In this document: piece by piece, positions 12,029 through 52,242 of the stretch
Position numbering within the stretch: position 1 is the stretch's first letter
Layout of the letters: every line of letters begins with the position of its first letter
Assembly (NCBI RefSeq): GCF_050920415.1
Contig: NZ_CP169309.1
DNA length: 64,000 nt
Direction: 5' to 3' (one strand)
Origin: Escherichia coli
GTDB taxonomy: Bacteria; Pseudomonadota; Gammaproteobacteria; Enterobacterales; Enterobacteriaceae
Position numbers and translations under genes: made by a program
The notes under the pieces: model-generated
Told to the model about the DNA's origin: nothing
Seen by the model: the letters and a program-made list of their open reading frames with translations, nothing else
The model's database searches: none

Positions 12029-13114
12029 TTAACGCAAAATAATTTTGCAAATCGCGTCGGCAACCTGTGGCGTGGTGGCATTGCCTTTCATATCAGGTGT
12101 TTTCGGCCCGTGAGCAATCACTTCTTCAATCGCGGCCAGAATACCGTTATGCGCTTGCTGGAAACGCTCATCGCCATTGCCGAGAAAATCGAGCATCATT
12201 GCACCGGCCCAAATCGTGGCGATAGGGTTAGCAATATTTTTCCCGTAGATATCCGGCGCGGAACCGTGGACTGGCTCGAAGAGCGACGGGAAAGTGCGTT
12301 CCGGATTCAGGTTGGCGGATGGGGCAATGCCAATGGTGCCGGTGCAGGCCGGGCCAAGATCGGAAAGGATATCGCCAAACAAATTGGACGCCACTACCAC
12401 ATCGAAGCGTTCCGGCTGCATCACAAAACGTGCGCAGAGAATGTCAATATGCTGCTTGTCCCAGCGGATCTCCGGGTAATTCTCAGCCATTGCTTCCACT
12501 CGCTCATCCCAATACGGCATGCTGATGGCTAAACCGTTCGATTTAGTGGCAGAAGTTAGCGTCTTACGTGGGCGGCTTTGCGCAAGTTCAAAGGCATAGC
12601 GCAAAATACGATCGACACCACGACGAGTAAATACCGATTCCTGAATGACGACTTCATGCTCTGTACCTTCATTCACTCTACCGCCGAGCGAGGAATATTC
12701 GCCTTCGGTGTTTTCCCTGACCACGTAAAAATCGATGTCGCCAGGCTGTTTTCCCGCCAGCGGGCAGGGAACGCCAGGAAAGAGACGAACCGGGCGCAGG
12801 TTGACGTACTGGTCGAACTCACGACGAAATTTCAGCAGCGAACCCCACAACGAAATATGGTCCGGAACGGTATCCGGCCAGCCGGCGGCACCAAAATAGA
12901 TGGCGTCGAAACGGCTAAGTTGCTCATGCCAGTCGTCCGGCATCATTTTACCGTGATGGCTGTAATACTCGCAGCTCGCCCACTCCATTTGCTCAAAACT
13001 CAAGGCGAAGCCCCAGCGCTCAGCGGCAGCCTGTAACACGCGAATCCCTTCAGGAAGGACTTCTTTGCCAATCCCGTCTCCCGGGATCGCAGCAATACGC
13101 ATCGTTTTCATCAT
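12029..13114 (-). CDS. dmlA: D-malate dehydrogenase (decarboxylating), isocitrate/isopropylmalate dehydrogenase family
   Basis: ORF track 361 aa; IDH/IPMDH family sequence; divergent from LysR gene. Confidence 0.9.
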   Translation of the reverse strand: MMKTMRIAAIPGDGIGKEVLPEGIRVLQAAAERWGFALSFEQMEWASCEYYSHHGKMMPDDWHEQLSRFDAIYFGAAGWPDTVPDHISLWGSLLKFRREFDQYVNLRPVRLFPGVPCPLAGKQPGDIDFYVVRENTEGEYSSLGGRVNEGTEHEVVIQESVFTRRGVDRILRYAFELAQSRPRKTLTSATKSNGLAISMPYWDERVEAMAENYPEIRWDKQHIDILCARFVMQPERFDVVVASNLFGDILSDLGPACTGTIGIAPSANLNPERTFPSLFEPVHGSAPDIYGKNIANPIATIWAGAMMLDFLGNGDERFQQAHNGILAAIEEVIAHGPKTPDMKGNATTPQVADAICKIILR

Positions 13115-13216
13115 TGGGTTCTCACTTCCTGACCATCAAAATTGACAACCTCACCATCCTATAATTGACTGAAAAGGAATTAATCCCCGCAACTGGTGAA
13201 ACATAAAACACGAATC

Positions 13217-14140
13217 ATGAATAATTTACCGCTGCTGAACGATTTGCGCGTCTTTATGCTGGTGGCTCGCCGGGCTGGTTTTGCCGCTGTGGCGGAAGAA
13301 TTGGGTGTTTCACCGGCTTTTGTCAGCAAACGCATTGCCTTGCTGGAACAAACGCTAAATGTGGTGTTGTTACACCGTACCACCCGCCGCGTCACCATTA
13401 CCGAAGAAGGAGAGCGGATTTATGAATGGGCGCAGCGGATTTTGCAGGATGTCGGCCAGATGATGGACGAACTTTCTGACGTGCGTCAGGTGCCGCAGGG
13501 GATGCTGCGTATTATCAGCAGCTTTGGTTTTGGACGACAGGTAGTGGCTCCGGCGTTATCAGCGCTGGCGAAAGCGTATCCGCAACTGGAATTACGTTTT
13601 GATGTGGAAGACCGGTTGGTCGATTTGGTCAATGAAGGTGTCGATCTCGACATTCGCATTGGCGATGACATCGCCCCTAATTTAATCGCCCGCAAACTGG
13701 CGACCAATTACCGTATTCTCTGCGCATCGCCGGAATTTATTGCGCAATATGGCACGCCGAAACATTTAACCGACCTTTCTGCATTGCCGTGCCTGGTCAT
13801 TAAAGAGCGCGATCATCCTTTTGGTATCTGGCAATTACGCAATAAAGAAGGCCACCATGCGATTAAAGTCACCGGCCCGCTGTCGTCTAATCATGGAGAA
13901 ATTGTTCATCAGTGGTGTCTTGATGGTCAGGGGATTGCGCTACGCTCCTGGTGGGATGTCAGCGAAAATATTGCCAGTGGTCATTTAGTGCAAGTGCTAC
14001 CGGAGTATTACCAGCCAGCAAATGTCTGGGCCGTTTATGTTTCAAGGCTGGCGACGTCAGCGAAAGTGCGGATAACGGTAGAATTTTTACGCCAGTATTT
14101 TGCCGAGCACTACCCGAATTTTTCACTGGAGCATGCCTGA
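13217..14140 (+). CDS. dmlR: LysR-type transcriptional regulator DmlR (about 307 aa)
   Basis: ORF track 13196..14140; start trimmed to MNNLPLLNDL; N-terminal HTH. Confidence 0.85.
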   Translation: MNNLPLLNDLRVFMLVARRAGFAAVAEELGVSPAFVSKRIALLEQTLNVVLLHRTTRRVTITEEGERIYEWAQRILQDVGQMMDELSDVRQVPQGMLRIISSFGFGRQVVAPALSALAKAYPQLELRFDVEDRLVDLVNEGVDLDIRIGDDIAPNLIARKLATNYRILCASPEFIAQYGTPKHLTDLSALPCLVIKERDHPFGIWQLRNKEGHHAIKVTGPLSSNHGEIVHQWCLDGQGIALRSWWDVSENIASGHLVQVLPEYYQPANVWAVYVSRLATSAKVRITVEFLRQYFAEHYPNFSLEHA

Positions 14141-14197
14141 TTAATGATTCAATTATCGGGTTGATATCGGGTTAAAACCTGATTTTCTCCTTTCTAA

Positions 14198-14905
<708 letters not shown>

Positions 14906-14988
14906 TGCTTTCAGCCCGCGTTATCGCGGGCTTCCTGCCTGTAATCTTTCCTTATTCATCGCTGATACGGTGCTAAAAAGTAACCAAT

Positions 14989-15011
14989 AAATGGTATTTA
15001 AAATGCAAATT
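14989..15011. promoter_or_regulatory. NsrR-type operator (AAATGGTATTT-A-AAATGCAAATT) upstream of yeaR-yoaG
   Basis: Two 11-bp half-sites resembling AAGATGCATTT / AAATGCATCTT around a 1-nt spacer, about 70 nt upstream of yeaR ATG. Confidence 0.5.
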
Positions 15012-15077
15012 ATCAGGCGTACCCTGAAACGGCTGAAATAAACTGTTTTCAGCACATTCATCGAAGGAGGGAAAAGG

Positions 15078-28552: not shown

Positions 28553-29299
28553 GTGACCAAACTCAAACTTCTGGCACTTGGAGTGCTTATCGCAACGTCT
28601 GCAGGCGTAGCGCACGCTGAAGGTAAATTTTCCCTGGGCGCAGGCGTAGGTGTCGTTGAACACCCATATAAAGATTACGATACCGATGTTTACCCAGTAC
28701 CGGTAATCAACTATGAAGGCGATAACTTCTGGTTCCGTGGCTTAGGTGGTGGTTACTACCTGTGGAATGACGCAACGGATAAACTTTCAATTACCGCTTA
28801 CTGGTCGCCGCTTTACTTCAAAGCTAAAGACAGTGGCGATCACCAAATGCGTCACCTGGATGACCGTAAGAGCACCATGATGGCTGGTCTGTCTTATGCT
28901 CACTTTACCCAGTACGGTTACCTGCGTACCACCCTGGCTGGCGATACCCTGGATAACAGCAACGGCATCGTCTGGGATATGGCCTGGTTGTATCGTTACA
29001 CCAACGGTGGCCTGACCGTGACTCCGGGTATTGGTGTGCAGTGGAACAGCGAAAACCAGAACGAATACTATTATGGCGTATCGCGCAAAGAGTCTGCGCG
29101 CAGCGGTCTGCGTGGCTATAACCCGAACGACAGCTGGAGCCCTTACCTGGAGCTAAGTGCCAGCTACAACTTCCTCGGTGACTGGAGTGTTTACGGTACC
29201 GCGCGCTACACCCGTCTGTCTGATGAAGTTACTGACAGCCCAATGGTGGATAAATCCTGGACTGGCCTGATTTCTACCGGGATCACCTACAAATTCTGA
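28553..29299 (+). CDS. mipA: MltA-interacting outer-membrane protein MipA, GTG start
   Basis: ORF track 248 aa; signal peptide, beta-barrel-like sequence ending in aromatic residue. Confidence 0.9.
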   Translation: MTKLKLLALGVLIATSAGVAHAEGKFSLGAGVGVVEHPYKDYDTDVYPVPVINYEGDNFWFRGLGGGYYLWNDATDKLSITAYWSPLYFKAKDSGDHQMRHLDDRKSTMMAGLSYAHFTQYGYLRTTLAGDTLDNSNGIVWDMAWLYRYTNGGLTVTPGIGVQWNSENQNEYYYGVSRKESARSGLRGYNPNDSWSPYLELSASYNFLGDWSVYGTARYTRLSDEVTDSPMVDKSWTGLISTGITYKF

Positions 29300-33326: not shown

Positions 33327-33626
33327 GTGGTTTGTCCCCTTTTTGCCGCGGTTATAAAGGGGATAGCCAACAATAACCCCACGACTCATCTCAATTATCT
33401 CGCCCCGACCTGGCTAAGTCCCAGCCCGGTCTCTTGCAGTCGCGTTCACGCCTGAATGACTTCTCCTGAACTTAAGTCTCAGACCTATTTGGCCGGTAAT
33501 CCCTCTCAAATTTGCTCATTTTGCGTTCCACCTTCCATCACCCTGTAACAGACCCAGCCATTTTCTGCGTAATTGTGATCTGAGTTGTAAAACGCAGATC
33601 ATTATCTGTGTTTTAAAGATTTAATG

Positions 33627-33658
33627 TTGACCTCAAAAATCATGTGGGTAAGTATGAT
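33627..33658 (+). promoter_or_regulatory. Candidate sigma70 promoter for ydjL operon (TTGACC, about 17-nt spacer, AAGTAT/TATGAT)
   Basis: -35-like TTGACC at 33627-33632 and -10-like hexamers at 33650-33658; 40 nt upstream of ydjL ATG with GAGGA SD. Confidence 0.4.
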
Positions 33659-33695
33659 GGCCATCTAAGCAAAACAAAACACAGAGGATGACGCA

Positions 33696-34772
33696 ATGAA
33701 AGCACTGGCTCGGTTTGGCAAAGCCTTTGGCGGCTACAAGATGATCGATGTCCCACAACCCATTTGTGGCCCGGAAGATGTGGTGATTGAAATTAAAGCT
33801 GCGGCAATCTGCGGCGCAGACATGAAGCACTACAATGTCGATAGCGGTTCTGATGAGTTTAACTCTATCCGCGGCCATGAGTTCGCAGGTTGTATTGCGC
33901 AGGTTGGTGAAAAAGTCAAAGACTGGAAAGTGGGGCAACGCGTCGTGTCGGATAACAGCGGTCACGTTTGCGGCGTTTGTCCGGCCTGTGAACAAGGTGA
34001 TTTTCTGTGTTGTACAGAAAAAGTAAACCTTGGTCTGGATAACAATACGTGGGGCGGTGGTTTTTCCAAATATTGTCTGGTTCCTGGTGAAATTCTCAAA
34101 ATTCATCGTCATGCGTTGTGGGAAATCCCTGATGGTGTTGATTATGAGGACGCAGCCGTACTTGACCCTATCTGCAATGCCTACAAATCCATCGCGCAGC
34201 AATCGAAATTCCTCCCTGGTCAGGATGTAGTCGTCATCGGCACTGGCCCACTCGGGCTGTTCTCCGTACAAATGGCGCGGATTATGGGGGCGGTAAATAT
34301 CGTCGTCGTTGGTCTACAAGAAGATGTGGCGGTCCGCTTCCCGGTTGCAAAAGAACTGGGTGCGACGGCTGTAGTAAATGGTTCTACCGAAGATGTGGTG
34401 GCGCGCTGCCAGCAAATTTGTGGTAAAGACAATCTGGGACTGGTGATTGAATGCTCCGGTGCCAATATCGCACTTAAACAAGCCATCGAAATGCTCCGTC
34501 CGAACGGGGAAGTGGTACGCGTTGGAATGGGCTTCAAGCCTCTTGATTTCTCGATTAATGACATTACCGCCTGGAACAAAAGAATCATTGGGCATATGGC
34601 CTATGACTCCACCTCATGGCGTAACGCTCTCCGGCTATTAGCCAGCGGCGCTATCAAAGTCAAACCGATGATCACGCATCGTATCGGCCTGTCGCAATGG
34701 CGCGAAGGGTTTGATGCGATGGTCGATAAAACCGCAATCAAAGTGATCATGACTTACGACTTTGATGAATAA
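33696..34772 (+). CDS. ydjL: Zn-dependent medium-chain dehydrogenase YdjL
   Basis: ORF track 358 aa; GHEFAGCI zinc motif, GxGxxG. Confidence 0.85.
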   Translation: MKALARFGKAFGGYKMIDVPQPICGPEDVVIEIKAAAICGADMKHYNVDSGSDEFNSIRGHEFAGCIAQVGEKVKDWKVGQRVVSDNSGHVCGVCPACEQGDFLCCTEKVNLGLDNNTWGGGFSKYCLVPGEILKIHRHALWEIPDGVDYEDAAVLDPICNAYKSIAQQSKFLPGQDVVVIGTGPLGLFSVQMARIMGAVNIVVVGLQEDVAVRFPVAKELGATAVVNGSTEDVVARCQQICGKDNLGLVIECSGANIALKQAIEMLRPNGEVVRVGMGFKPLDFSINDITAWNKRIIGHMAYDSTSWRNALRLLASGAIKVKPMITHRIGLSQWREGFDAMVDKTAIKVIMTYDFDE

Positions 34773-34798
34773 CTACTCTCCTGAAGGAACGTTATCGC

Positions 34799-36178
34799 AT
34801 GGAACAGATAACAAAACCGCATTGTGGTGCACGGCTGGATCGCTTACCGGATTGCCGCTGGCATTCGTCAATGTTTGCTATCGTCGCGTTTGGCTTGCTT
34901 GTCTGCTGGAGTAATGCCGTTGGTGGCTTGATCCTCGCGCAGCTGAAAGAGTTGGGCTGGACAGATAATTCCACCACTGCCACATTCTCAGCAATCACGA
35001 CCGCCGGGATGTTTCTCGGTGCGCTGGTTGGCGGCATCATCGGTGACAAAACCGGTCGCAGAAATGCGTTCATCCTCTATGAGGCCATTCATATTGCCTC
35101 GATGGTTGTCGGTGCTTTTTCACCGAATATGGATTTCCTTATTGCCTGCCGTTTTGTGATGGGCGTTGGGCTGGGAGCTTTACTGGTGACGCTGTTTGCT
35201 GGTTTCACCGAATATATGCCCGGTAGAAATCGCGGAACATGGTCCAGTCGGGTTTCCTTTATTGGCAACTGGTCATATCCGCTCTGTTCATTGATTGCGA
35301 TGGGACTCACGCCGCTGATTAGTGCAGAGTGGAACTGGCGAGTACAACTGCTTATCCCTGCAATATTGTCGCTTATCGCTACGGCGCTGGCCTGGCGCTA
35401 CTTTCCTGAATCCCCGCGCTGGCTGGAATCGCGCGGACGGTATCAGGAAGCCGAGAAAGTCATGCGGAGTATAGAAGAAGACGTCATACGCCAGACGGGT
35501 AAACCTTTGCCGCCCGTGGTTATTGCTGATGACGGTAAAGCGCCACAAGCGGTGCCGTATTCAGCCTTACTGACAGGAGTATTACTGAACCGCGTGATAT
35601 TAGGTTCTTGTGTGCTGATTGCCATGAACGTTGTGCAGTACACACTAATTAACTGGTTGCCAACGATATTCATGACCCAGGGGATTAATTTAAAAGACTC
35701 GATTGTTTTAAATACCATGAGTATGTTTGGCGCGCCATTTGGTATTTTTATTGCCATGCTGGTGATGGATAAAATTCCGCGTAAAACAATGGGTGTGGGG
35801 CTATTAATCCTGATTGCGGTGCTCGGATATATCTATTCACTGCAAACCAGTATGTTGCTCATAACGCTGATTGGTTTCTTCCTGATTACTTTCGTCTATA
35901 TGTACGTTTGCTATGCCTCGGCAGTGTATGTCCCTGAGATCTGGCCGACAGAGGCCAAATTACGTGGCTCCGGTCTGGCGAATGCAGTAGGGCGAATCAG
36001 TGGTATTGCCGCACCTTATGCCGTTGCAGTGCTGCTCAGTAGTTATGGCGTAACGGGAGTCTTTATTCTTCTGGGGGCGGTTTCAATTATTGTCGCAATT
36101 GCTATCGCCACCATTGGAATTGAAACCAAAGGTGTCTCCGTTGAAAGTTTAAGTATTGATGCAGTAGTCAATAAATAA
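34799..36178 (+). CDS. ydjK: MFS sugar/metabolite transporter YdjK
   Basis: ORF track 459 aa; 12-TM MFS. Confidence 0.85.
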   Translation: MEQITKPHCGARLDRLPDCRWHSSMFAIVAFGLLVCWSNAVGGLILAQLKELGWTDNSTTATFSAITTAGMFLGALVGGIIGDKTGRRNAFILYEAIHIASMVVGAFSPNMDFLIACRFVMGVGLGALLVTLFAGFTEYMPGRNRGTWSSRVSFIGNWSYPLCSLIAMGLTPLISAEWNWRVQLLIPAILSLIATALAWRYFPESPRWLESRGRYQEAEKVMRSIEEDVIRQTGKPLPPVVIADDGKAPQAVPYSALLTGVLLNRVILGSCVLIAMNVVQYTLINWLPTIFMTQGINLKDSIVLNTMSMFGAPFGIFIAMLVMDKIPRKTMGVGLLILIAVLGYIYSLQTSMLLITLIGFFLITFVYMYVCYASAVYVPEIWPTEAKLRGSGLANAVGRISGIAAPYAVAVLLSSYGVTGVFILLGAVSIIVAIAIATIGIETKGVSVESLSIDAVVNK

Positions 36179-36194
36179 TACTGGTGGATTCAAA

Positions 36195-37238
36195 ATGAAA
36201 AATTCAAAAGCAATATTGCAGGTGCCGGGCACAATGAAAATTATTTCAGCAGAAATACCTGTGCCTAAAGAAGATGAAGTTTTGATTAAAGTAGAATATG
36301 TCGGTATTTGTGGTTCAGATGTACATGGTTTTGAATCAGGCCCGTTTATTCCGCCTAAAGACCCAAATCAAGAAATTGGCCTGGGTCATGAATGCGCCGG
36401 GACGGTTGTGGCTGTGGGAAGCCGTGTGCGCAAATTTAAAGCGGGGGATCGGGTAAATATCGAACCTGGCGTTCCTTGCGGTCACTGTCGTTACTGTCTG
36501 GAAGGCAAATATAACATCTGTCCGGACGTTGATTTTATGGCGACACAACCCAACTACCGCGGCGCATTAACGCACTATCTGTGTCATCCGGAGAGCTTTA
36601 CTTACAAACTGCCCGACAATATGGACACGATGGAAGGGGCGCTGGTGGAGCCTGCTGCAGTCGGTATGCATGCCGCGATGCTGGCAGATGTTAAACCGGG
36701 TAAGAAGATAATTATTCTGGGAGCGGGTTGTATTGGTTTGATGACGTTGCAAGCATGCAAATGCCTGGGAGCTACGGATATTGCCGTCGTTGATGTACTG
36801 GAAAAACGTCTGACAATGGCGGAACAGCTCGGCGCGACAGTGGTTATTAACGGCGCAAAAGAAGACACTATTGCACGTTGTCAGCAATTTACCGAAGAAA
36901 TGGGCGCAGATATTGTTTTCGAAACAGCGGGTTCTGCGGTCACCGTTAAACAGGCACCTTATCTGGTAATGCGCGGCGGTAAAATTATGATTGTTGGTAC
37001 TGTACCGGGCGATTCGGCAATCAATTTCCTCAAAATCAATCGCGAAGTCACTATCCAGACAGTATTCCGCTATGCCAATCGTTATCCGGTCACGATTGAA
37101 GCTATTTCCTCAGGGCGATTCGATGTGAAATCGATGGTGACACATATTTACGATTATCAGGATGTACAACAGGCATTTGAAGAGTCGGTTAACAACAAAC
37201 GCGACATTATTAAAGGCGTTATTAAAATTAGCGATTAA
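36195..37238 (+). CDS. ydjJ: Zn-dependent medium-chain dehydrogenase YdjJ
   Basis: ORF track 347 aa; GHECAGTV zinc motif. Confidence 0.85.
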   Translation: MKNSKAILQVPGTMKIISAEIPVPKEDEVLIKVEYVGICGSDVHGFESGPFIPPKDPNQEIGLGHECAGTVVAVGSRVRKFKAGDRVNIEPGVPCGHCRYCLEGKYNICPDVDFMATQPNYRGALTHYLCHPESFTYKLPDNMDTMEGALVEPAAVGMHAAMLADVKPGKKIIILGAGCIGLMTLQACKCLGATDIAVVDVLEKRLTMAEQLGATVVINGAKEDTIARCQQFTEEMGADIVFETAGSAVTVKQAPYLVMRGGKIMIVGTVPGDSAINFLKINREVTIQTVFRYANRYPVTIEAISSGRFDVKSMVTHIYDYQDVQQAFEESVNNKRDIIKGVIKISD

Positions 37239-37258
37239 TTAATACGGGAGAACAGAAT

Positions 37259-38095
37259 ATGCTCGCAGATATCAGATATTGGGAAAACGATGCCACAAAT
37301 AAACATTATGCAATTGCCCATTTTAATGTATGGAATGCAGAAATGTTGATGGGCGTTATCGACGCAGCCGAAGAAGCGAAATCACCGGTTATTATTTCTT
37401 TTGGTACAGGTTTTGTCGGGAACACCTCATTTGAAGATTTCTCTCACATGATGGTATCAATGGCAAAAAAAGCAACGGTGCCGGTAATAACTCATTGGGA
37501 TCATGGTCGGAGTATGGAAATTATTCATAACGCCTGGACTCATGGTATGAATTCATTAATGCGTGATGCTTCCGCATTTGATTTCGAAGAAAATATTCGT
37601 TTAACCAAAGAGGCTGTTGATTTCTTCCATCCGCTGGGTATTCCGGTAGAGGCAGAATTAGGGCATGTCGGTAATGAAACCGTTTATGAAGAAGCGCTGG
37701 CGGGCTATCACTATACCGATCCTGACCAGGCGGCTGAATTTGTTGAACGTACGGGCTGTGACTCATTGGCTGTCGCCATCGGCAACCAGCATGGGGTTTA
37801 TACGTCAGAGCCACAATTGAACTTTGAGGTCGTCAAACGCGTACGCGATGCCGTTTCTGTTCCGCTGGTTTTGCACGGCGCATCGGGGATCAGTGATGCC
37901 GACATTAAAACTGCAATTTCGTTGGGTATCGCGAAAATCAACATTCATACGGAGCTCTGTCAGGCCGCAATGGTAGCAGTGAAAGAAAACCAGGATCAGC
38001 CTTTCCTGCATTTAGAACGTGAAGTACGTAAAGCTGTAAAAGAACGGGCATTGGAAAAAATTAAACTGTTCGGTTCTGATGGCAAAGCGGAATAA
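37259..38095 (+). CDS. ydjI: Class II (metal-dependent) aldolase YdjI
   Basis: ORF track 278 aa; FBA/tagatose-bisphosphate aldolase class II-like. Confidence 0.85.
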   Translation: MLADIRYWENDATNKHYAIAHFNVWNAEMLMGVIDAAEEAKSPVIISFGTGFVGNTSFEDFSHMMVSMAKKATVPVITHWDHGRSMEIIHNAWTHGMNSLMRDASAFDFEENIRLTKEAVDFFHPLGIPVEAELGHVGNETVYEEALAGYHYTDPDQAAEFVERTGCDSLAVAIGNQHGVYTSEPQLNFEVVKRVRDAVSVPLVLHGASGISDADIKTAISLGIAKINIHTELCQAAMVAVKENQDQPFLHLEREVRKAVKERALEKIKLFGSDGKAE

Positions 38096-38099
38096 TGAT

Positions 38100-39047
38100 A
38101 TGGATAATCTCGACGTTATTTGTATAGGTGCCGCTATTGTTGATATTCCATTGCAACCGGTCAGTAAAAATATCTTTGATGTGGATTCTTATCCTCTTGA
38201 AAGAATCGCAATGACCACCGGGGGTGATGCAATAAATGAAGCAACAATTATTTCTCGCCTGGGCCATCGCACAGCATTAATGAGTCGTATTGGTAAAGAT
38301 GCCGCCGGGCAATTTATTCTCGACCATTGTCGCAAAGAGAATATTGATATTCAAAGCCTGAAGCAGGACGTCAGCATAGATACCTCTATTAACGTTGGAC
38401 TGGTGACGGAGGATGGCGAGCGGACGTTTGTCACAAACCGTAACGGCAGTCTGTGGAAATTGAATATTGACGATGTTGATTTTTCGCGGTTTTCTCAGGC
38501 GAAATTATTATCTCTGGCCAGTATTTTCAACAGTCCTCTATTGGATGGTAAAGCGCTAACAGAAATTTTTACGCAAGCTAAAGCCCGGCAGATGATTATC
38601 TGTGCCGATATGATCAAACCGCGGTTGAATGAAACGCTGGATGATATTTGCGAAGCATTGAGTTATGTCGATTATCTGTTTCCTAATTTTGCCGAGGCAA
38701 AATTACTCACTGGGAAAGAGACACTGGATGAAATTGCTGACTGCTTTCTTGCGTGCGGCGTAAAAACGGTGGTGATTAAAACGGGTAAAGACGGCTGCTT
38801 TATCAAGCGTGGTGACATGACGATGAAGGTGCCGGCGGTCGCAGGAATAACCGCCATCGACACTATTGGCGCAGGCGATAACTTTGCTTCTGGCTTTATA
38901 GCGGCTCTGTTAGAAGACAAAAATCTGCGTGAATGCGCACGCTTTGCCAATGCAACGGCGGCTATCTCGGTTCTAAGCGTCGGTGCCACCACCGGTGTAA
39001 AAAACAGAAAGCTGGTCGAACAATTGCTGGAAGAATACGAAGGATAA
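38100..39047 (+). CDS. ydjH: PfkB-family sugar kinase YdjH (about 315 aa)
   Basis: ORF track 38079..39047; GAGD motif (DTIGAGDNFASG); start trimmed to MDNLDVICIG. Confidence 0.85.
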   Translation: MDNLDVICIGAAIVDIPLQPVSKNIFDVDSYPLERIAMTTGGDAINEATIISRLGHRTALMSRIGKDAAGQFILDHCRKENIDIQSLKQDVSIDTSINVGLVTEDGERTFVTNRNGSLWKLNIDDVDFSRFSQAKLLSLASIFNSPLLDGKALTEIFTQAKARQMIICADMIKPRLNETLDDICEALSYVDYLFPNFAEAKLLTGKETLDEIADCFLACGVKTVVIKTGKDGCFIKRGDMTMKVPAVAGITAIDTIGAGDNFASGFIAALLEDKNLRECARFANATAAISVLSVGATTGVKNRKLVEQLLEEYEG

Positions 39048-39056
39048 TGAAGGCAA

Positions 39057-40037
39057 ATGAAAAAGATACCTTTAGGCACAACGGATATAACGCTTTCGCG
39101 AATGGGGTTGGGGACATGGGCCATTGGCGGCGGTCCTGCATGGAATGGCGATCTCGATCGGCAAATATGTATTGATACGATTCTTGAAGCCCATCGTTGC
39201 GGCATTAACCTGATTGATACTGCGCCAGGATATAACTTTGGCAATAGTGAGGTTATCGTCGGTCAGGCGTTAAAAAAACTGCCCCGTGAACAGGTTGTAG
39301 TAGAAACCAAATGCGGCATTGTCTGGGAACGAAAAGGGAGTTTATTCAACAAAGTTGGCGATCGGCAGTTGTATAAAAACCTTTCCCCGGAATCTATCCG
39401 CGAAGAGGTAGAAGCCAGCTTGCAACGTCTGGGTATTGATTACATCGATATCTACATGACGCACTGGCAGTCGGTGCCGCCATTTTTTACGCCGATAGCT
39501 GAAACTGTCGCAGTGCTCAATGAGTTAAAGGCCGAAGGGAAAATTCGCGCTATAGGCGCTGCTAACGTCGATGCTGACCATATCCGCGAGTATCTGCAAT
39601 ATGGTGAACTGGATATTATTCAGGCGAAATACAGTATCCTCGACCGGGCAATGGAAAGCGAACTGCTGCCGCTATGTCGTGATAATGGCATTGTGTTACA
39701 GGTTTATTCCCCGCTAGAGCAGGGATTGTTGACCGGTACCATCACTCGTGATTATGTTCCGGGCGGCGCTCGGGCAAATAAAGTCTGGTTCCAGCGTGAA
39801 AACATGCTGAAAGTGATTGATATGCTTGAACAGTGGCAGCCACTCTGTGCTCGTTATCAGTGCACAATTCCCACTCTGGCACTGGCGTGGATATTAAAAC
39901 AGAGTGATTTAATCTCCATTCTTAGTGGGGCTACTGCGCCGGAACAGGTACGTGAAAATGTCGCGGCACTGAATATCAACTTATCGGATGCAGACGCAAC
40001 ATTGATGAGGGAAATGGCAGAGGCTCTGGAGCGTTAA
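39057..40037 (+). CDS. ydjG: Aldo-keto reductase YdjG
   Basis: ORF track 326 aa. Confidence 0.85.
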   Translation: MKKIPLGTTDITLSRMGLGTWAIGGGPAWNGDLDRQICIDTILEAHRCGINLIDTAPGYNFGNSEVIVGQALKKLPREQVVVETKCGIVWERKGSLFNKVGDRQLYKNLSPESIREEVEASLQRLGIDYIDIYMTHWQSVPPFFTPIAETVAVLNELKAEGKIRAIGAANVDADHIREYLQYGELDIIQAKYSILDRAMESELLPLCRDNGIVLQVYSPLEQGLLTGTITRDYVPGGARANKVWFQRENMLKVIDMLEQWQPLCARYQCTIPTLALAWILKQSDLISILSGATAPEQVRENVAALNINLSDADATLMREMAEALER

Positions 40038-40173
40038 ATACTCAACACGATTCACCTCTGTTTCTGTGAAAACTGTGATGAAAATCTGTGATTCAAACAG
40101 GTTATTTTGAAAGTAAACATCGGTTATGCGATAATCGCGCTAATGTGATGTAAAAAGATACAGGGGTGTAATC

Positions 40174-40932
40174 GTGGCGGCAAAAGACAGGATTCAGGCA
40201 ATTAAGCAAATGGTTGCCAACGATAAAAAGGTGACAGTCTCAAATTTGAGTGGGATTTTTCAGGTAACCGAAGAAACCATTCGCCGCGATCTTGAGAAGC
40301 TGGAAGATGAAGGCTTTTTGACCAGAACCTATGGTGGTGCTGTTTTAAATACAGCGATGTTGACGGAGAATATCCATTTTTATAAGCGCGCTTCATCGTT
40401 TTATGAAGAGAAGCAGCTTATTGCACGCAAGGCACTACCCTTTATCGACAATAAAACCACTATGGCAGCCGATTCCAGTAGTACCGTTATGGAATTGCTC
40501 AAATTGTTGCAGGACCGTAGTGACCTGACGTTGCTAACTAACTCGGCGGAAGCGATTCATGTTCTGGCTCAATCAGAAATTAAAGTCGTTTCAACGGGGG
40601 GGGAACTAAACAAAAATACACTTTCCCTGCAAGGAAGAATTACTAAAGAGATCATCAGCCGCTACCATGTCGATATCATGGTAATGAGTTGTAAAGGTCT
40701 TGATATTAACAGCGGCGCGCTGGACTCTAACGAAGCGGAAGCTGAAATCAAAAAGACAATGATCCGTCAGGCGACAGAAGTTGCGTTATTGGTTGATCAC
40801 TCTAAGTTTGATCGCAAAGCTTTTGTCCAGTTAGCTGACTTTAGTCATATTAATTACATAATAACTGATAAATCACCGGGTGCAGAGTGGATAGCATTTT
40901 GCAAAGACAATAATATCCAGCTGGTGTGGTAA
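40174..40932 (+). CDS. ydjF: DeoR-family transcriptional regulator YdjF, GTG start
   Basis: ORF track 252 aa; N-terminal HTH, DeoR C-terminal sugar-phosphate-binding domain. Confidence 0.85.
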   Translation: MAAKDRIQAIKQMVANDKKVTVSNLSGIFQVTEETIRRDLEKLEDEGFLTRTYGGAVLNTAMLTENIHFYKRASSFYEEKQLIARKALPFIDNKTTMAADSSSTVMELLKLLQDRSDLTLLTNSAEAIHVLAQSEIKVVSTGGELNKNTLSLQGRITKEIISRYHVDIMVMSCKGLDINSGALDSNEAEAEIKKTMIRQATEVALLVDHSKFDRKAFVQLADFSHINYIITDKSPGAEWIAFCKDNNIQLVW

Positions 40933-41049
40933 TTTAAGCACACGTTGTCAATATTATTTGTTCCTGCGCCTGGAAAATAAAATGATGATAAAGATGCGGC
41001 AAGTGAATTTGCCGCAATTGCTACCTTTTTAGCAAATCCGAGGCACCTA

Positions 41050-42408
41050 ATGGAACAATATGATCAAATTGGCGCAAGACTGGACCGCTTGCCTTTGGCC
41101 CGGTTTCATTATCGTATATTTGGTATTATAAGCTTTAGTCTGTTATTAACGGGTTTTTTGAGTTATTCAGGCAATGTTGTTTTAGCAAAGCTGGTAAGCA
41201 ATGGATGGTCAAATAATTTCCTCAATGCCGCCTTTACCTCGGCATTAATGTTTGGTTATTTCATCGGCTCTCTTACCGGTGGGTTCATCGGTGATTATTT
41301 TGGGCGGCGCAGGGCTTTTCGCATAAATCTTCTCATCGTCGGTATTGCGGCAACAGGGGCCGCTTTTGTCCCTGATATGTACTGGCTCATTTTCTTTCGC
41401 TTCCTGATGGGCACAGGAATGGGGGCGCTGATTATGGTTGGCTATGCTTCGTTTACGGAGTTTATCCCCGCGACGGTGCGTGGAAAATGGTCCGCGCGGC
41501 TGTCATTTGTCGGTAACTGGTCGCCCATGCTGTCTGCGGCGATAGGCGTGGTGGTTATCGCTTTTTTTAGTTGGCGGATAATGTTTCTGCTGGGTGGTAT
41601 TGGCATACTGTTAGCCTGGTTTCTCTCAGGTAAATACTTTATTGAGTCGCCTCGATGGTTGGCGGGGAAAGGACAAATCGCAGGTGCAGAAAGCCAACTT
41701 CGTGAAGTAGAGCAGCAAATTGAAAGAGAGAAGAGTGTTCGTTTACCCCCGCTTACTTTGAATCAGAGCAACAGCAAGGCTAACGTAATCAATGGTACTT
41801 TCTGGCTGCTGTTTAAAGGGGAAATGTTACGACGTACATTAGTTGCGATTACTGTTTTAATTGCAATGAACATTTCACTTTATACCATCACCGTATGGAT
41901 ACCGACCATATTTGTTAACTCCGGTATTGATGTTGATAAATCAATATTAATGACTGCTGTTATTATGATTGGCGCTCCGGTAGGTATATTTATTGCGGCA
42001 TTAATTATTGATCATTTTCCTCGTCGATTATTTGGCTCCGCCTTGCTTATTATTATTGCCATGTTAGGCTATATCTATTCAATTCAGACTACAGAGTGGG
42101 CGATTTTAATCTATGGCCTGGTGATGATCTTCTTTTTATACATGTATGTTTGCTTCGCGTCGGCGGTTTATATCCCGGAGCTTTGGCCAACGCATTTACG
42201 CCTGCGCGGTTCGGGTTTCGTTAATGCCGTCGGACGGATCGTCGCGGTCTTCACGCCTTATGGCGTTGCGGCACTATTAACGCATTATGGGTCAATCACG
42301 GTGTTTATGGTGCTTGGCGTGATGTTAGTGCTCTGTGCGCTGGTTCTCTCCATTTTTGGCATCGAAACGCGGAAGGTGTCGCTGGAAGAGATTTCTGAGG
42401 TGAATTAA
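41050..42408 (+). CDS. ydjE: MFS transporter YdjE
   Basis: ORF track 452 aa; paralogous to ydjK. Confidence 0.85.
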   Translation: MEQYDQIGARLDRLPLARFHYRIFGIISFSLLLTGFLSYSGNVVLAKLVSNGWSNNFLNAAFTSALMFGYFIGSLTGGFIGDYFGRRRAFRINLLIVGIAATGAAFVPDMYWLIFFRFLMGTGMGALIMVGYASFTEFIPATVRGKWSARLSFVGNWSPMLSAAIGVVVIAFFSWRIMFLLGGIGILLAWFLSGKYFIESPRWLAGKGQIAGAESQLREVEQQIEREKSVRLPPLTLNQSNSKANVINGTFWLLFKGEMLRRTLVAITVLIAMNISLYTITVWIPTIFVNSGIDVDKSILMTAVIMIGAPVGIFIAALIIDHFPRRLFGSALLIIIAMLGYIYSIQTTEWAILIYGLVMIFFLYMYVCFASAVYIPELWPTHLRLRGSGFVNAVGRIVAVFTPYGVAALLTHYGSITVFMVLGVMLVLCALVLSIFGIETRKVSLEEISEVN

Positions 42409-42430
42409 ATCTTTCGTTGATGGCGTCAAT

Positions 42431-42496
42431 TGCCAGATGTACCACTGACGTGTTTTATCTGGCCTACAATGGCAGTACAGAATTGTAGGCCAGCAT
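42431..42496. repeat. REP-type palindromic element(s) between ydjE and pncA
   Basis: TGCCAGATG...TTATCTGGCCTAC followed by inverted ATTGTAGGCCAGCAT; resembles E. coli REP consensus ending CTTATCNGGCCTAC. Confidence 0.55.
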
Positions 42497-42500
42497 AAAA

Positions 42501-44300: not shown

Positions 44301-45023
44301 TTAATCCTGCAACGCATAGGTTACGGTGGTGACTACGCGTACCGTTTTATTAATCGCCGTAGGATCATCTTCATCACTGCCACTGGCGAAGATCTGGAAC
44401 ACGCCTTGTGAGGCATCGCTAATTGACCCCACCTGGCTACCTGAGTCCGTTGCAAATTGTAATGCTGCGTTGCGTGCATCTTTGGTGGCGGCGGCAATCA
44501 TCTCAGCGCGCAGTGCGCCAATACCATTAAAGCGATAGGCGACTTTGCTCTCAGCGATAGCGCCCTCCGTAGCGACTTGCAGTTCGTTTAATTTCGCGAC
44601 GACTTTTTCGACAGCAGCAACATTATGGGTTTTTATCGTCACTGACCCGTCTGCGTTATAGCGTGGCATTGTGGGATCATCTTTCAGATAAAAGGAATCA
44701 GTTCGCTTGCTTGTCCATTGGCCCAGGGTTATCTCTTTCTCGTTAATCCCCTGAGCATTGAGTTCGGCAACAATTTTTTTCTGCGCGTCTTCCAGTTTCG
44801 GGAACAGTTCGCCGGGTATATTACCCTTAAAGTTAATCGCAATTGTTAATTCTGCCGTATCTGCGCGAACTTCTTTTTCAGAAAGCCCACGCACATTTAC
44901 ATAACGGTTATTGGTTTTTAAATGTTTAACACCATCGCCAACAAAATAACCACAGGCGCTAATCCCCAGTCCGAGGACGATAGCGGCAATTAAAGAGGGG
45001 GCCTTATTCACTGATGACTCCAT
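44301..45023 (-). CDS. Hypothetical exported or membrane-anchored protein, SIMPL/DUF541-like (about 239 aa; ORF extends to 45113)
   Basis: ORF track 44301..45113 (-); N-terminal hydrophobic segment APSLIAAIVLGLGISACGYFV; resemblance to SIMPL proteins (BP26/YggE type) is by eye only; a gene here is not expected from K-12 order. Confidence 0.55.
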   Translation of the reverse strand: MESSVNKAPSLIAAIVLGLGISACGYFVGDGVKHLKTNNRYVNVRGLSEKEVRADTAELTIAINFKGNIPGELFPKLEDAQKKIVAELNAQGINEKEITLGQWTSKRTDSFYLKDDPTMPRYNADGSVTIKTHNVAAVEKVVAKLNELQVATEGAIAESKVAYRFNGIGALRAEMIAAATKDARNAALQFATDSGSQVGSISDASQGVFQIFASGSDEDDPTAINKTVRVVTTVTYALQD

Positions 45024-48859: not shown

Positions 48860-50815
48860 ATGCGGTTGTTTATTGCCGAAAAACCGAGTCTGGCGCGCGC
48901 CATTGCTGATGTCCTGCCCAAACCGCACCGGAAAGGCGATGGCTTTATCGAGTGCGGTAATGGCCAGGTGGTGACCTGGTGTATCGGTCACCTGCTTGAG
49001 CAGGCGCAGCCAGACGCCTACGACAGTCGCTATGCGCGCTGGAACCTGGCCGATCTCCCCATTGTCCCGGAAAAGTGGCAATTACAGCCCCGACCCTCCG
49101 TGACTAAACAACTTAATGTCATCAAACGCTTTCTGCATGAAGCCAGCGAAATCGTTCACGCCGGTGACCCGGACCGTGAAGGGCAATTACTGGTAGATGA
49201 AGTGCTGGACTACCTGCAACTGGCACCGGAAAAGCGCCAGCAGGTGCAGCGTTGCTTGATCAACGACCTGAACCCGCAGGCGGTTGAACGGGCGATCGAT
49301 CGTCTTCGTTCCAATAGCGAGTTTGTACCGCTGTGCGTTTCCGCGCTGGCGCGAGCGCGTGCCGACTGGCTGTACGGCATCAATATGACCCGCGCGTACA
49401 CCATTCTCGGTCGTAATGCGGGTTATCAGGGCGTGCTTTCCGTGGGACGCGTGCAGACGCCCGTGCTCGGGCTGGTGGTGCGCCGCGATGAAGAGATTGA
49501 AAACTTCGTGGCGAAAGACTTCTTTGAAGTCAAAGCGCATATCGTGACACCTGCCGATGAGCGGTTTACCGCTATCTGGCAACCGAGCGAAGCGTGTGAA
49601 CCGTACCAGGATGAAGAAGGGCGCTTGTTACATCGTCCGCTGGCGGAGCATGTAGTTAACCGCATCAGCGGCCAACCGGCTATTGTCACCAGCTATAACG
49701 ATAAACGGGAATCAGAATCCGCACCGCTGCCGTTTTCGCTTTCGGCGTTGCAGATTGAAGCGGCTAAACGCTTTGGTCTGAGTGCGCAGAACGTGCTTGA
49801 TATCTGCCAGAAGTTGTACGAAACGCACAAGCTAATCACTTATCCGCGTTCCGATTGTCGCTATCTGCCAGAAGAGCATTTTGCCGGACGCCACGCAGTG
49901 ATGAATGCCATCAGCGTTCATGCACCGGGCTTGTTACCGCAGCCAGTGGTCGATCCAGATATACGCAACCGCTGCTGGGATGACAAAAAGGTCGATGCAC
50001 ACCACGCCATCATCCCGACCGCGAGGAGTTCTGCCATCAACCTGACGGAAAACGAGGCGAAGGTCTATAACCTGATTGCTCGTCAGTATTTGATGCAGTT
50101 CTGTCCGGACGCGGTGTTCCGCAAGTGTGTTATCGAACTGGACATTGCCAAAGGCAAATTTGTCGCTAAAGCCCGTTTTCTTGCTGAAGCAGGCTGGCGC
50201 ACACTGTTAGGCAGCAAAGAGCGCGATGAAGAAAACGACGGCACGCCGCTGCCTGTGGTGGCGAAAGGCGATGAGTTGCTGTGTGAAAAAGGTGAAGTGG
50301 TAGAGCGGCAAACCCAGCCGCCGCGCCATTTTACCGATGCAACACTGCTTTCGGCGATGACCGGGATCGCGCGCTTTGTTCAGGACAAAGATCTGAAAAA
50401 GATCCTTCGTGCCACCGATGGTCTGGGGACAGAAGCAACCCGTGCCGGGATTATTGAACTGTTGTTCAAGCGTGGCTTTCTGACCAAAAAAGGGCGCTAT
50501 ATCCACTCCACCGACGCCGGAAAAGCGTTATTCCATTCGCTGCCAGAAATGGCTACGCGACCGGACATGACCGCGCACTGGGAATCGGTGCTGACGCAAA
50601 TCAGCGAAAAGCAGTGTCGCTATCAGGACTTTATGCAACCGTTGGTGGGGACGCTGTATAAGTTGATTGATCAGGCCAAACGTACGCCGGTGCGGCAGTT
50701 TCGCGGCATAGTGGCTCCAGATGGAGGAGAAGGAAATAAAAAGACTTCACCCCGTAAGCGAGCAGCGAAAAAAAGCCCGCCAGCAGCAGAGGCGGGCAGT
50801 GGAGTGATAATGTAA
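48860..50815 (+). CDS. topB: DNA topoisomerase III
   Basis: ORF track 48803..50815; start trimmed to [12 protein letters not shown] (Toprim N-terminus). Confidence 0.9.
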
Positions 50816-50837
50816 TGCTCTGATGCAGTCAGTTTTC

Positions 50838-50872
50838 GTAGGCCAGATAAGGCGTTCACGCCGCATCTGGCA
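50838..50872. repeat. REP element in topB-gdhA convergent spacer
   Basis: GTAGGCCAGATAAGGCGTTCACGCCGCATCTGGCA, close to canonical REP sequence. Confidence 0.7.
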
Positions 50873-50898
50873 TAAACGCCTGAAACGGCGCTAATGAC

Positions 50899-52242
50899 TT
50901 AAATCACACCCTGCGCCAGCATCGCATCGGCAACCTTCACAAAACCGGCAATGTTCGCGCCCTGCACGTAGTTGGTTTGCTCACCTTCACCACCATGCTC
51001 AACACAGGCATGGTGGATATCCAGCATGATGTGATGCAAACGTGCGTCAACTTTCTCGGCTTTCCAGCCCAGGCGCGCAGCGTTTTGCGCCATTTCCAGG
51101 CCGGATGTAGCTACGCCACCAGCATTAGCCGCTTTACCCGGTGCAAACAGTACGCCTGCCTGCTGGAACAGTTCAGTCGCTTCGATGGTGGTCGGCATAT
51201 TTGCCCCTTCGGCGACGGCTTTAACGCCATTGGCGATAAGCTGATGCGCGGCGTCTACATCCAGTTCGTTCTGGGTGGCGCAAGGCAGGGCGATATCAAC
51301 CGGTACAGACCACGGCTGTTGGCCTTCGAGATAGACCAGGCCAAATTTTTTGGCGTAATCTGCCACTCGACCATCGCGGCTGGCTTTGATTTCGATAAGA
51401 CGTGCCAGTTTCTCTTTAGTGAATCCGCTTTCATCAACGACAGTGCCACTGGAGTCTGACGCAGTAATCACACGGGCACCAAATTCCATCGCTTTTTCGA
51501 TAGCGTACTGAGCGACGTTGCCGGAGCCAGAAACGGAAACGCGCATCCCTTCAAAACCCATACCGTGGCGTTTTAGCATTGCCTCGGTGAAATAAACCAG
51601 ACCGTAGCCGGTTGCTTCCGGGCGAATAAGACTGCCGCCAAAAGAAAGCCCCTTACCGGTGAAGACGCAGGCGGTATTGTTGGAGAGCTTTTTCATCATC
51701 CCCGCCATAAAGCCGACTTCACGACCACCAACGCCGATATCACCTGCCGGAACGTCGGTATCTGCGCCCAGGTGGCGATACAGTTCAGTCATTAGCGCCT
51801 GGCAGAACCGCATCACTTCGCCTTCGCTTTTCCCTTTCGGGTCGAAATCGCTGCCGCCTTTACCACCGCCCATCGGCAGAGTTGTCAGGGCATTTTTGAA
51901 GGTTTGTTCAAAGCCGAGGAATTTGAGAATGGAGAGATTTACCGATGGATGGAAGCGCATACCACCTTTGTACGGGCCGATGGCGGAGCTGAACTGCACG
52001 CGCCATGCACGGTTGACCTGTACCTGGTTGCGATCGTCAACCCATACCACGCGAAACTGGATCACGCGCTCCGGTTCAACCAGACGCTCCAGTAATGACA
52101 TCTGACGATATTTTGGATTTTGTTCAAGAAAAGGCCAGAGTGTGGTCATTACTTCACGAACGGCTTGCGCGAACTCGGTTTGATTCGGGTCGCGCTTTTG
52201 GACATGGTTGAGGAATGACTCCAGAGAATATGTCTGATCCAT
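50899..52242 (-). CDS. gdhA: NADP-specific glutamate dehydrogenase
   Basis: ORF track 447 aa; GGGKGG motif. Confidence 0.95.
   Translation of the reverse strand: MDQTYSLESFLNHVQKRDPNQTEFAQAVREVMTTLWPFLEQNPKYRQMSLLERLVEPERVIQFRVVWVDDRNQVQVNRAWRVQFSSAIGPYKGGMRFHPSVNLSILKFLGFEQTFKNALTTLPMGGGKGGSDFDPKGKSEGEVMRFCQALMTELYRHLGADTDVPAGDIGVGGREVGFMAGMMKKLSNNTACVFTGKGLSFGGSLIRPEATGYGLVYFTEAMLKRHGMGFEGMRVSVSGSGNVAQYAIEKAMEFGARVITASDSSGTVVDESGFTKEKLARLIEIKASRDGRVADYAKKFGLVYLEGQQPWSVPVDIALPCATQNELDVDAAHQLIANGVKAVAEGANMPTTIEATELFQQAGVLFAPGKAANAGGVATSGLEMAQNAARLGWKAEKVDARLHHIMLDIHHACVEHGGEGEQTNYVQGANIAGFVKVADAMLAQGVI

Follow-up and report, generated by a model that had tools for sequence, protein, structure and literature searches.

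A ynjI-free topB–gdhA junction with a single REP element in an Escherichia cryptic clade I region

The genes topB and gdhA are convergent in the DNA studied here, a stretch of 64 kb (64,000 nt, hereafter the window), and only a short spacer separates their stop codons (Table 1). The gene order runs from yoaH to pncA-ansA-sppA-ydjA-selD-topB and continues with gdhA-ynjH-nudG-ynjF-ynjE on the far side. Strain MFDS1022581, in which the topB region is annotated, matches the window there with 99.99% identity. A first-pass annotation of the window had described a spacer that carries a REP element and lacks ynjI, and this is confirmed: the ORF list has no reading frame of at least 60 aa wholly inside the spacer, and no tblastn match to YnjI was found anywhere in the 64-kb window. 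The same annotation gave the length of the spacer as 84 bp. The spacer is indeed short, but its exact length is 83 nt. Its description as essentially a single REP is roughly right, as the element takes up 35 of the 83 nt and is accompanied by a half-REP remnant.

Elsewhere in the window, a gene for a SIMPL-domain protein lies between ansA and sppA, in a stretch that is missing in a cryptic Escherichia (L007) and in Salmonella (L015). The block ydjL-ydjK-ydjJ-ydjI-ydjH-ydjG-ydjF-ydjE is present in the window and absent between yeaC and pncA in the clade I strain RMDEC465, in L007, in a second cryptic Escherichia (L009), and in Salmonella L015. In MFDS1022581, whose genome is essentially identical, the annotation marks mipA as frameshifted.

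Table 1. Positions of the features discussed; numbers refer to the window unless a comparison locus (L number) is given.
Feature	Position	Strand	Remarks
topB, DNA topoisomerase III, 651 aa	48860-50815	+	ORF list; TAA stop at 50813-50815
gdhA, NADP-specific glutamate dehydrogenase, 447 aa	50899-52242	-	ORF list; stop reads TTA at 50899-50901
topB-gdhA spacer, 83 nt	50816-50898		Between convergent stop codons; aligns with empty spacers of L007, L008 and E. albertii L010
Hypervariable topB 3′ end, coding for the C-terminal tail	50690-50815	+	Changes together with site content
Terminator-like hairpin for the gdhA transcript (predicted)	50768-50797	-	GCCCGCC-N9-GGCGGGC, then U7; fold of the gdhA-sense strand
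REP, 35 nt, GTAGGCCAGATAAGGCGTTCACGCCGCATCTGGCA	50838-50872		22 nt past the topB stop, 26 nt past the gdhA stop
REP head motif GTAGGCCAGATAAGGCG	50838-50854		
REP palindrome arms	50839-50855 and 50858-50874		
Probable left-arm remnant of a second REP, 15 nt, GCCTGAAACGGCGCT	50878-50892		Alignment with E. albertii
15-nt word CATAAACGCCTGAAA	50871-50885		Identical to K-12 sequence overlapping the ynjI stop codon
SIMPL-domain protein gene	44301-45011		
ydjL-ydjE block	about 33400-42500		
mipA	28584-29299		
K-12-type flank comparison	L001 3590-3845 and 4887-5002; L022 9940-10100; L026 9930-10145		Pseudocitrobacter, Citrobacter sp. NCU1
Hsp70 cassette, UPEC957C	L004 323-5006		
Hsp70 cassette, E. 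coli 536	L089 2134-8173		
HH97 gap	L005 4000-4540		Probable assembly artefact
hscC-djlC-ybeR-ybeQ, BL21(DE3)	L092 7934-12959		
In-frame TAG in topB, E. albertii NBRC 107761	L010 6151-6153		
Group II intron, clade I RMDEC465	L088 about 12709-15060	gdhA-sense	

The 35-nt element in the spacer has the hallmarks of a REP (repetitive extragenic palindrome). The head motif is present with 0 mismatches, where 0.15 matches are expected at up to 2 mismatches, and GTAGGCCNGATAAGNCG is matched exactly; the element has the conserved GTAGGCC / GGCCTAC head and a GC-rich stem. The two arms of the palindrome, 17 nt each, are 82% complementary, and the hairpin is stable on both strands (z-scores of -2.3 and -3.3). 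The element lies outside coding sequence, just past both stop codons, and it belongs to a type with many dispersed copies. A 35-nt copy with 100% identity was found at an unrelated place in E. coli genomes, and a 311-nt junction query gave a median of 20 matches per E. coli genome, a number driven by the REP part. Within the 64-kb window itself there is only one further REP match, a weak one. The Rfam family naRNA4, presumably a REP-derived RNA (REP325-derived), matched the element with 36.2 bits (E 9.7e-5), which is under its gathering score of 59.5.

REPs 3′ of gdhA in K-12 were reportedly described by Becerril, Merino, Valle, and Bolivar in the 1980s, and deletion of one of them is said to lower the stability of gdhA mRNA. 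The window element shares with these and with REP/BIME elements in general the 35-nt imperfect palindrome, the GTAGGCC head, the extragenic location, the multiple copies, and the association with the gdhA 3′ region. It differs from the K-12 elements in number, type, and place: the window has a single REP of another sequence type between gdhA and topB, whereas K-12 has a pair between gdhA and ynjI. Where L007, a further cryptic Escherichia (L008), and E. albertii have CCGG in the stem, the window REP has CCAG/CTGG, a compensated change. A complete second REP, GCCTGATGCAACGCTTGCGCGTCTTATCAGGCCTAC, is present in E. albertii where the window has the 15 nt at the gdhA end of the spacer, and the alignment indicates that these 15 nt are probably the leftover left arm of a second REP.

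In the compact junction, both convergent transcripts have the REP in their 3′ untranslated region. Judging from REPs at other places, it would most likely act as a stem-loop barrier that shields the upstream mRNA from 3′-5′ exonucleases. No T-run terminator for topB was found in the spacer. The gdhA transcript probably ends at a GC-rich hairpin followed by U7, read here as a putative gdhA terminator, which sits within the last topB codons (KKSPP...EAG), about 75 nt past the REP on the gdhA-sense strand. This hairpin folds with -16.0 kcal/mol in the window, and similar values were obtained for L002, L007, L008, and many Citrobacter and Kosakonia. It is kept, at -14 to -20 kcal/mol and in some cases with variant stems, in most of the empty alleles (those with no gene between topB and gdhA) that bear the A run in Escherichia, Citrobacter, Salmonella, and Kosakonia, and it is weak in both ynjI-bearing alleles (-7.2 kcal/mol in K-12 and -7.9 kcal/mol in L009). 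Retention in empty alleles and weakness in those with ynjI fit a long-standing compact arrangement. For the REP and for the hairpin alike, we infer candidate roles at the level of RNA.

The 3′ end of topB, within which the hairpin lies, is hypervariable. In a three-way alignment of the window with K-12 and a B2-type strain, divergence is ordinary up to about position 50690, the similarity then collapses, and it recovers at the gdhA stop. Over the tail-coding stretch, the window is identical to K-12 at 0.69 and to the B2-type allele at 0.80 of positions, compared with mostly 0.91–1.00 in the flanking 100-nt windows. Four distinct C-terminal tails of topoisomerase III pair with four states of the site. 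The best outgroup match to the window tail is L007, at only 85% identity. In E. albertii NBRC 107761, topB contains an in-frame TAG 81 nt before the usual stop position, so that the tail would be 27 residues shorter; the sequence downstream is still homologous to the Escherichia tail-coding region.

On the sppA-selD region alone, the window is Escherichia cryptic clade I. In a set of 5,426 complete E. coli genomes, an identity of ≥99.4% to the window over this region (sppA-ydjA-selD) is reached by 18, and the next best has 98.1%. The 18 include EC42405 and 2013C-4282, which PMC10100065 lists under cryptic clade I and which are 99.5%–99.7% identical to the window over 3.7 kb. Across a 9-kb region, the window is ∼95% identical to K-12 and to the B2-type strain alike, while these two look slightly closer to each other in the three-way alignment, a pattern that fits clade I. 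The first-pass annotation had suggested a lineage without ynjI as one explanation of the junction, and the relatives support this, 17 of the 18 carrying the window junction at 97.4%–100% identity. In the eighteenth, RMDEC465, a group II intron that encodes an ltrA reverse transcriptase/maturase splits the same spacer; it is the only genome in the survey with such an intron beside the REP. The intron is inserted exactly at the REP foot, between CAGTTT and TCGTAGGCC, on the gdhA-sense strand and with a GTGCG 5′ end, which suggests that the REP stem-loop was its target.

Comparison with K-12 confirmed the map given in the first-pass annotation, in which a 346-aa gene lies between topB and gdhA. 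In MG1655p, which is derived from K-12 MG1655, ynjI encodes 346 aa with the Pfam domain DUF1266, and it is preceded by a 127-nt promoter region and followed by two REPs. REPs on both sides of ynjI, which had been proposed as a check, are not what K-12 has: two lie between ynjI and gdhA, and none between topB and ynjI. The K-12 locus (b1762, a DUF1266 inner-membrane protein) occupies the same slot as the window junction and has the same neighbors, ydjA-selD-topB on one side and gdhA-ynjH-nudG-ynjF-ynjE on the other. The window, however, is without ynjI, without its promoter region, without the K-12-type topB tail (...ADEVGSGAIA), and without the REP pair beside gdhA. The empty spacers of E. albertii, L007, and L008 can be aligned with the window spacer along its length, REP and flanking parts included (89% identity over 57 nt to L007 in blastn).

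These differences bear on the other explanation offered at first, a deletion in which ynjI would have been excised from a K-12-like allele and the REP left or made at the scar. The identity of the word CATAAACGCCTGAAA with the K-12 ynjI stop region speaks for such an event, as does a short TTTCGT that the window and the K-12 allele have in common on the left side. None of 2,000 shuffles gave a shared word of >11 nt, and the 15-nt word appears to reflect some link between the two alleles. As a deletion scar it was rejected, because the flanks around it are not K-12-like. The last ∼120 nt of topB are only ∼69% identical to K-12, the rest of the spacer cannot be aligned with it, and both are homologous to ynjI-free junctions instead. 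The K-12 REP pair is absent, and a different REP stands where E. albertii, L007, and L008 have theirs; a deletion could not have created a REP that is common to all of these. A tail and spacer unlike those of K-12 but homologous to empty Escherichia spacers are a pattern that deletion from a K-12-like allele cannot give, and we consider simple deletion very improbable.

To place the junction in the wider population, the content of the site is given here for the 5,426 complete genomes. About 3,506 of them (about 65%) have the ynjI segment, among them K-12, BL21, O157:H7, O55:H7, and O111. In about 1,515 genomes, topB and gdhA are contiguous with no gene between them, and only 17 of these have the window allele. 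The remaining roughly 1,490 empty junctions, carried for example by U15A, strain 1190, and O166:H15 strains, are a different allele with 73%–77% identity to the window over the 311-nt junction. Concealment of ynjI by a collapsed or mis-joined region in the assembly would also produce an apparent gap, but 17 complete genomes, independent of one another, share the junction, about 1,490 others have a related one, and the sequence reads cleanly, with topB and gdhA both intact. The chance of such an artefact is practically negligible. In the unrelated genome HH97, a gap that might have passed for an intermediate with a partial ynjI deletion was rejected; it consists of homopolymer-rich noise partly resembling ynjI and looks like a consensus-error artefact of the assembly.

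In about 369 genomes, for example 536, 83972, and the Seattle 1946 strain, the site holds a gene for an HscC-like Hsp70, accompanied by J-domain/Sel1 genes (one or two) and, in some cases, by a gene for a 266-aa protein. The cassette comes with a topB tail of its own (...KKDATVKRD). Its Hsp70 is 43% identical to HscC, and the 266-aa protein found in some cassettes is of unknown family. A relationship of this protein to YnjI was considered and not accepted, as the match covers 49 residues with E 5e-4 in a single comparison and there is no Pfam match. PADLOC, run on YnjI and on the cassette proteins, yielded only marginal, uninformative matches and no support for a known defense system.

The outgroup set comprised 80 loci from other species and did not include E. 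fergusonii or several of the cryptic clades. In about 50 species of Enterobacteriaceae, topB and gdhA are directly convergent with no gene between them, and the spacers read in nine of these species measure 15–133 nt. ynjI was absent from the site in every non-Escherichia locus examined. About ten of the outgroup loci have unrelated cargo or longer gaps. An AT-rich Hcp island occupies the gap in L043. In L053, the cargo consists of a porin, a PTS EIIBC, and a protein of the β-lactamase family, and in L062 of the TRAP transporter DctP/DctM. L071 has an enolase-superfamily enzyme and L031 a lone distant homologue of the 266-aa cassette protein. The gap of Klebsiella spallanzanii (L028) carries an Hsp70 and a J-domain gene. 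The topB-gdhA site is like other variable cargo sites between conserved core genes, in that the same conserved flanks enclose alternative, unrelated cargo. It differs from integration or replacement hot spots in that no integrase, tRNA, or att-like repeats are visible. A search of the literature did not find the topB-gdhA site named as a hot spot.

What is established is how the junction is built, how often each of its states occurs in the population, and that the spacer is homologous to empty ones; the history that we prefer on these grounds is one of retention. With a probability of roughly 0.8, the window has kept an old, compact, ynjI-free junction, an 83-nt spacer with one REP, and has undergone no recent deletion of ynjI. 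We infer that the site may be a variable slot whose content is swapped by homologous recombination, with crossovers in the topB end and in the gdhA end. ynjI sits in a separate junction allele with its own topB tail and its own REP pair.

The same sequence would result if a clade I ancestor had carried ynjI and had then received an empty allele from another Escherichia by homologous recombination across topB and gdhA, in which case ynjI was lost by allelic exchange and the compact junction was not retained. Several observations are compatible with such a secondary replacement. In the cryptic Escherichia L009 (MOD1-EC7003), ynjI is present at the site and is 91.8% identical to K-12, and the flanking topB is 92.8% identical; the gene and its flanks have diverged to a similar degree, and the ynjI allele is therefore also old at the site. 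The topB tail is a mosaic between lineages, that of L008 being half K-12-like and half B2-like. For gdhA, the identity of the window is 96.9% to K-12 and 95.8% to the B2 type, but its topB tail is nearer to the B2 type, which places breakpoints of recombination at the junction. Among possible donors, however, no allele exceeded 85%–89% identity, and the window allele is shared at ≥97.4% identity by 17 clade I genomes, with the same allele, interrupted by the intron, in the eighteenth. Any exchange would therefore have to be older than the diversification of the clade I genomes sampled. Replacement of this kind is unlikely, and retention of the ancestral junction remains the preferred reading.

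The GC content of ynjI is 36%–44%, and that of its flanks is 52%–57%. The gene is activated by BglJ-RcsB and affected by H-NS/StpA (PMC3950696). The low GC content together with this regulation is typical of acquired DNA, and ynjI looks like an AT-rich accessory gene that was acquired. Compared with the empty spacers of other Escherichia, those of Citrobacter sp. NCU1 and Pseudocitrobacter are more similar to the flanks of the K-12 allele; the matching features are a topB tail with GSGAIA at its end, the TAAGCGA that follows the stop codon, and a two-REP cluster beside gdhA. This resemblance hints at a mosaic or foreign origin of the K-12 allele.

In NCBIfam, YnjI is assigned solely to an uncharacterized equivalog. 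At another place in the BL21(DE3) genome, the genes ybeQ (Sel1), ybeR (DUF1266), djlC (J-domain), and hscC (Hsp70) adjoin. Through this adjacency, both of the alternative gene cargos at topB-gdhA can be seen to draw on the same domain families. YnjI and YbeR, both DUF1266 proteins, have no significant pairwise similarity, and the link between them is at the family level only. The co-occurrence of DUF1266, Hsp70, J-domain, and Sel1 in hscC-djlC-ybeR-ybeQ may hint that the two cargos are one chaperone module. In its fullest form, this idea would make the site a long-established cargo slot that recombination maintains. Each cargo would be exchanged with its matching topoisomerase III tail, the YnjI and Hsp70/J-domain/Sel1 cargos would be versions of a single specialized chaperone module, the polymorphism might be kept by selection, and the empty allele would be the third and ancestral alternative. 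We put this forward as speculation with a small chance of being right.

The absence of ynjI from the window is an ordinary accessory-gene polymorphism at a variable site. Among the 5,426 complete assemblies, the window-type junction was found in clade I genomes only and can serve as a simple marker for them. The current understanding of the region is not challenged, and the observations may be of interest for work on hot spots of the pan-genome and on the 3′ ends of convergent genes. In a wider picture, exchange of the slot would drag the end of topB along with it, and a predicted terminator-like hairpin of gdhA would be written in topB codons. For E. coli as a species, ynjI is an accessory rather than a core gene, and K-12 does not represent the default state at topB-gdhA.
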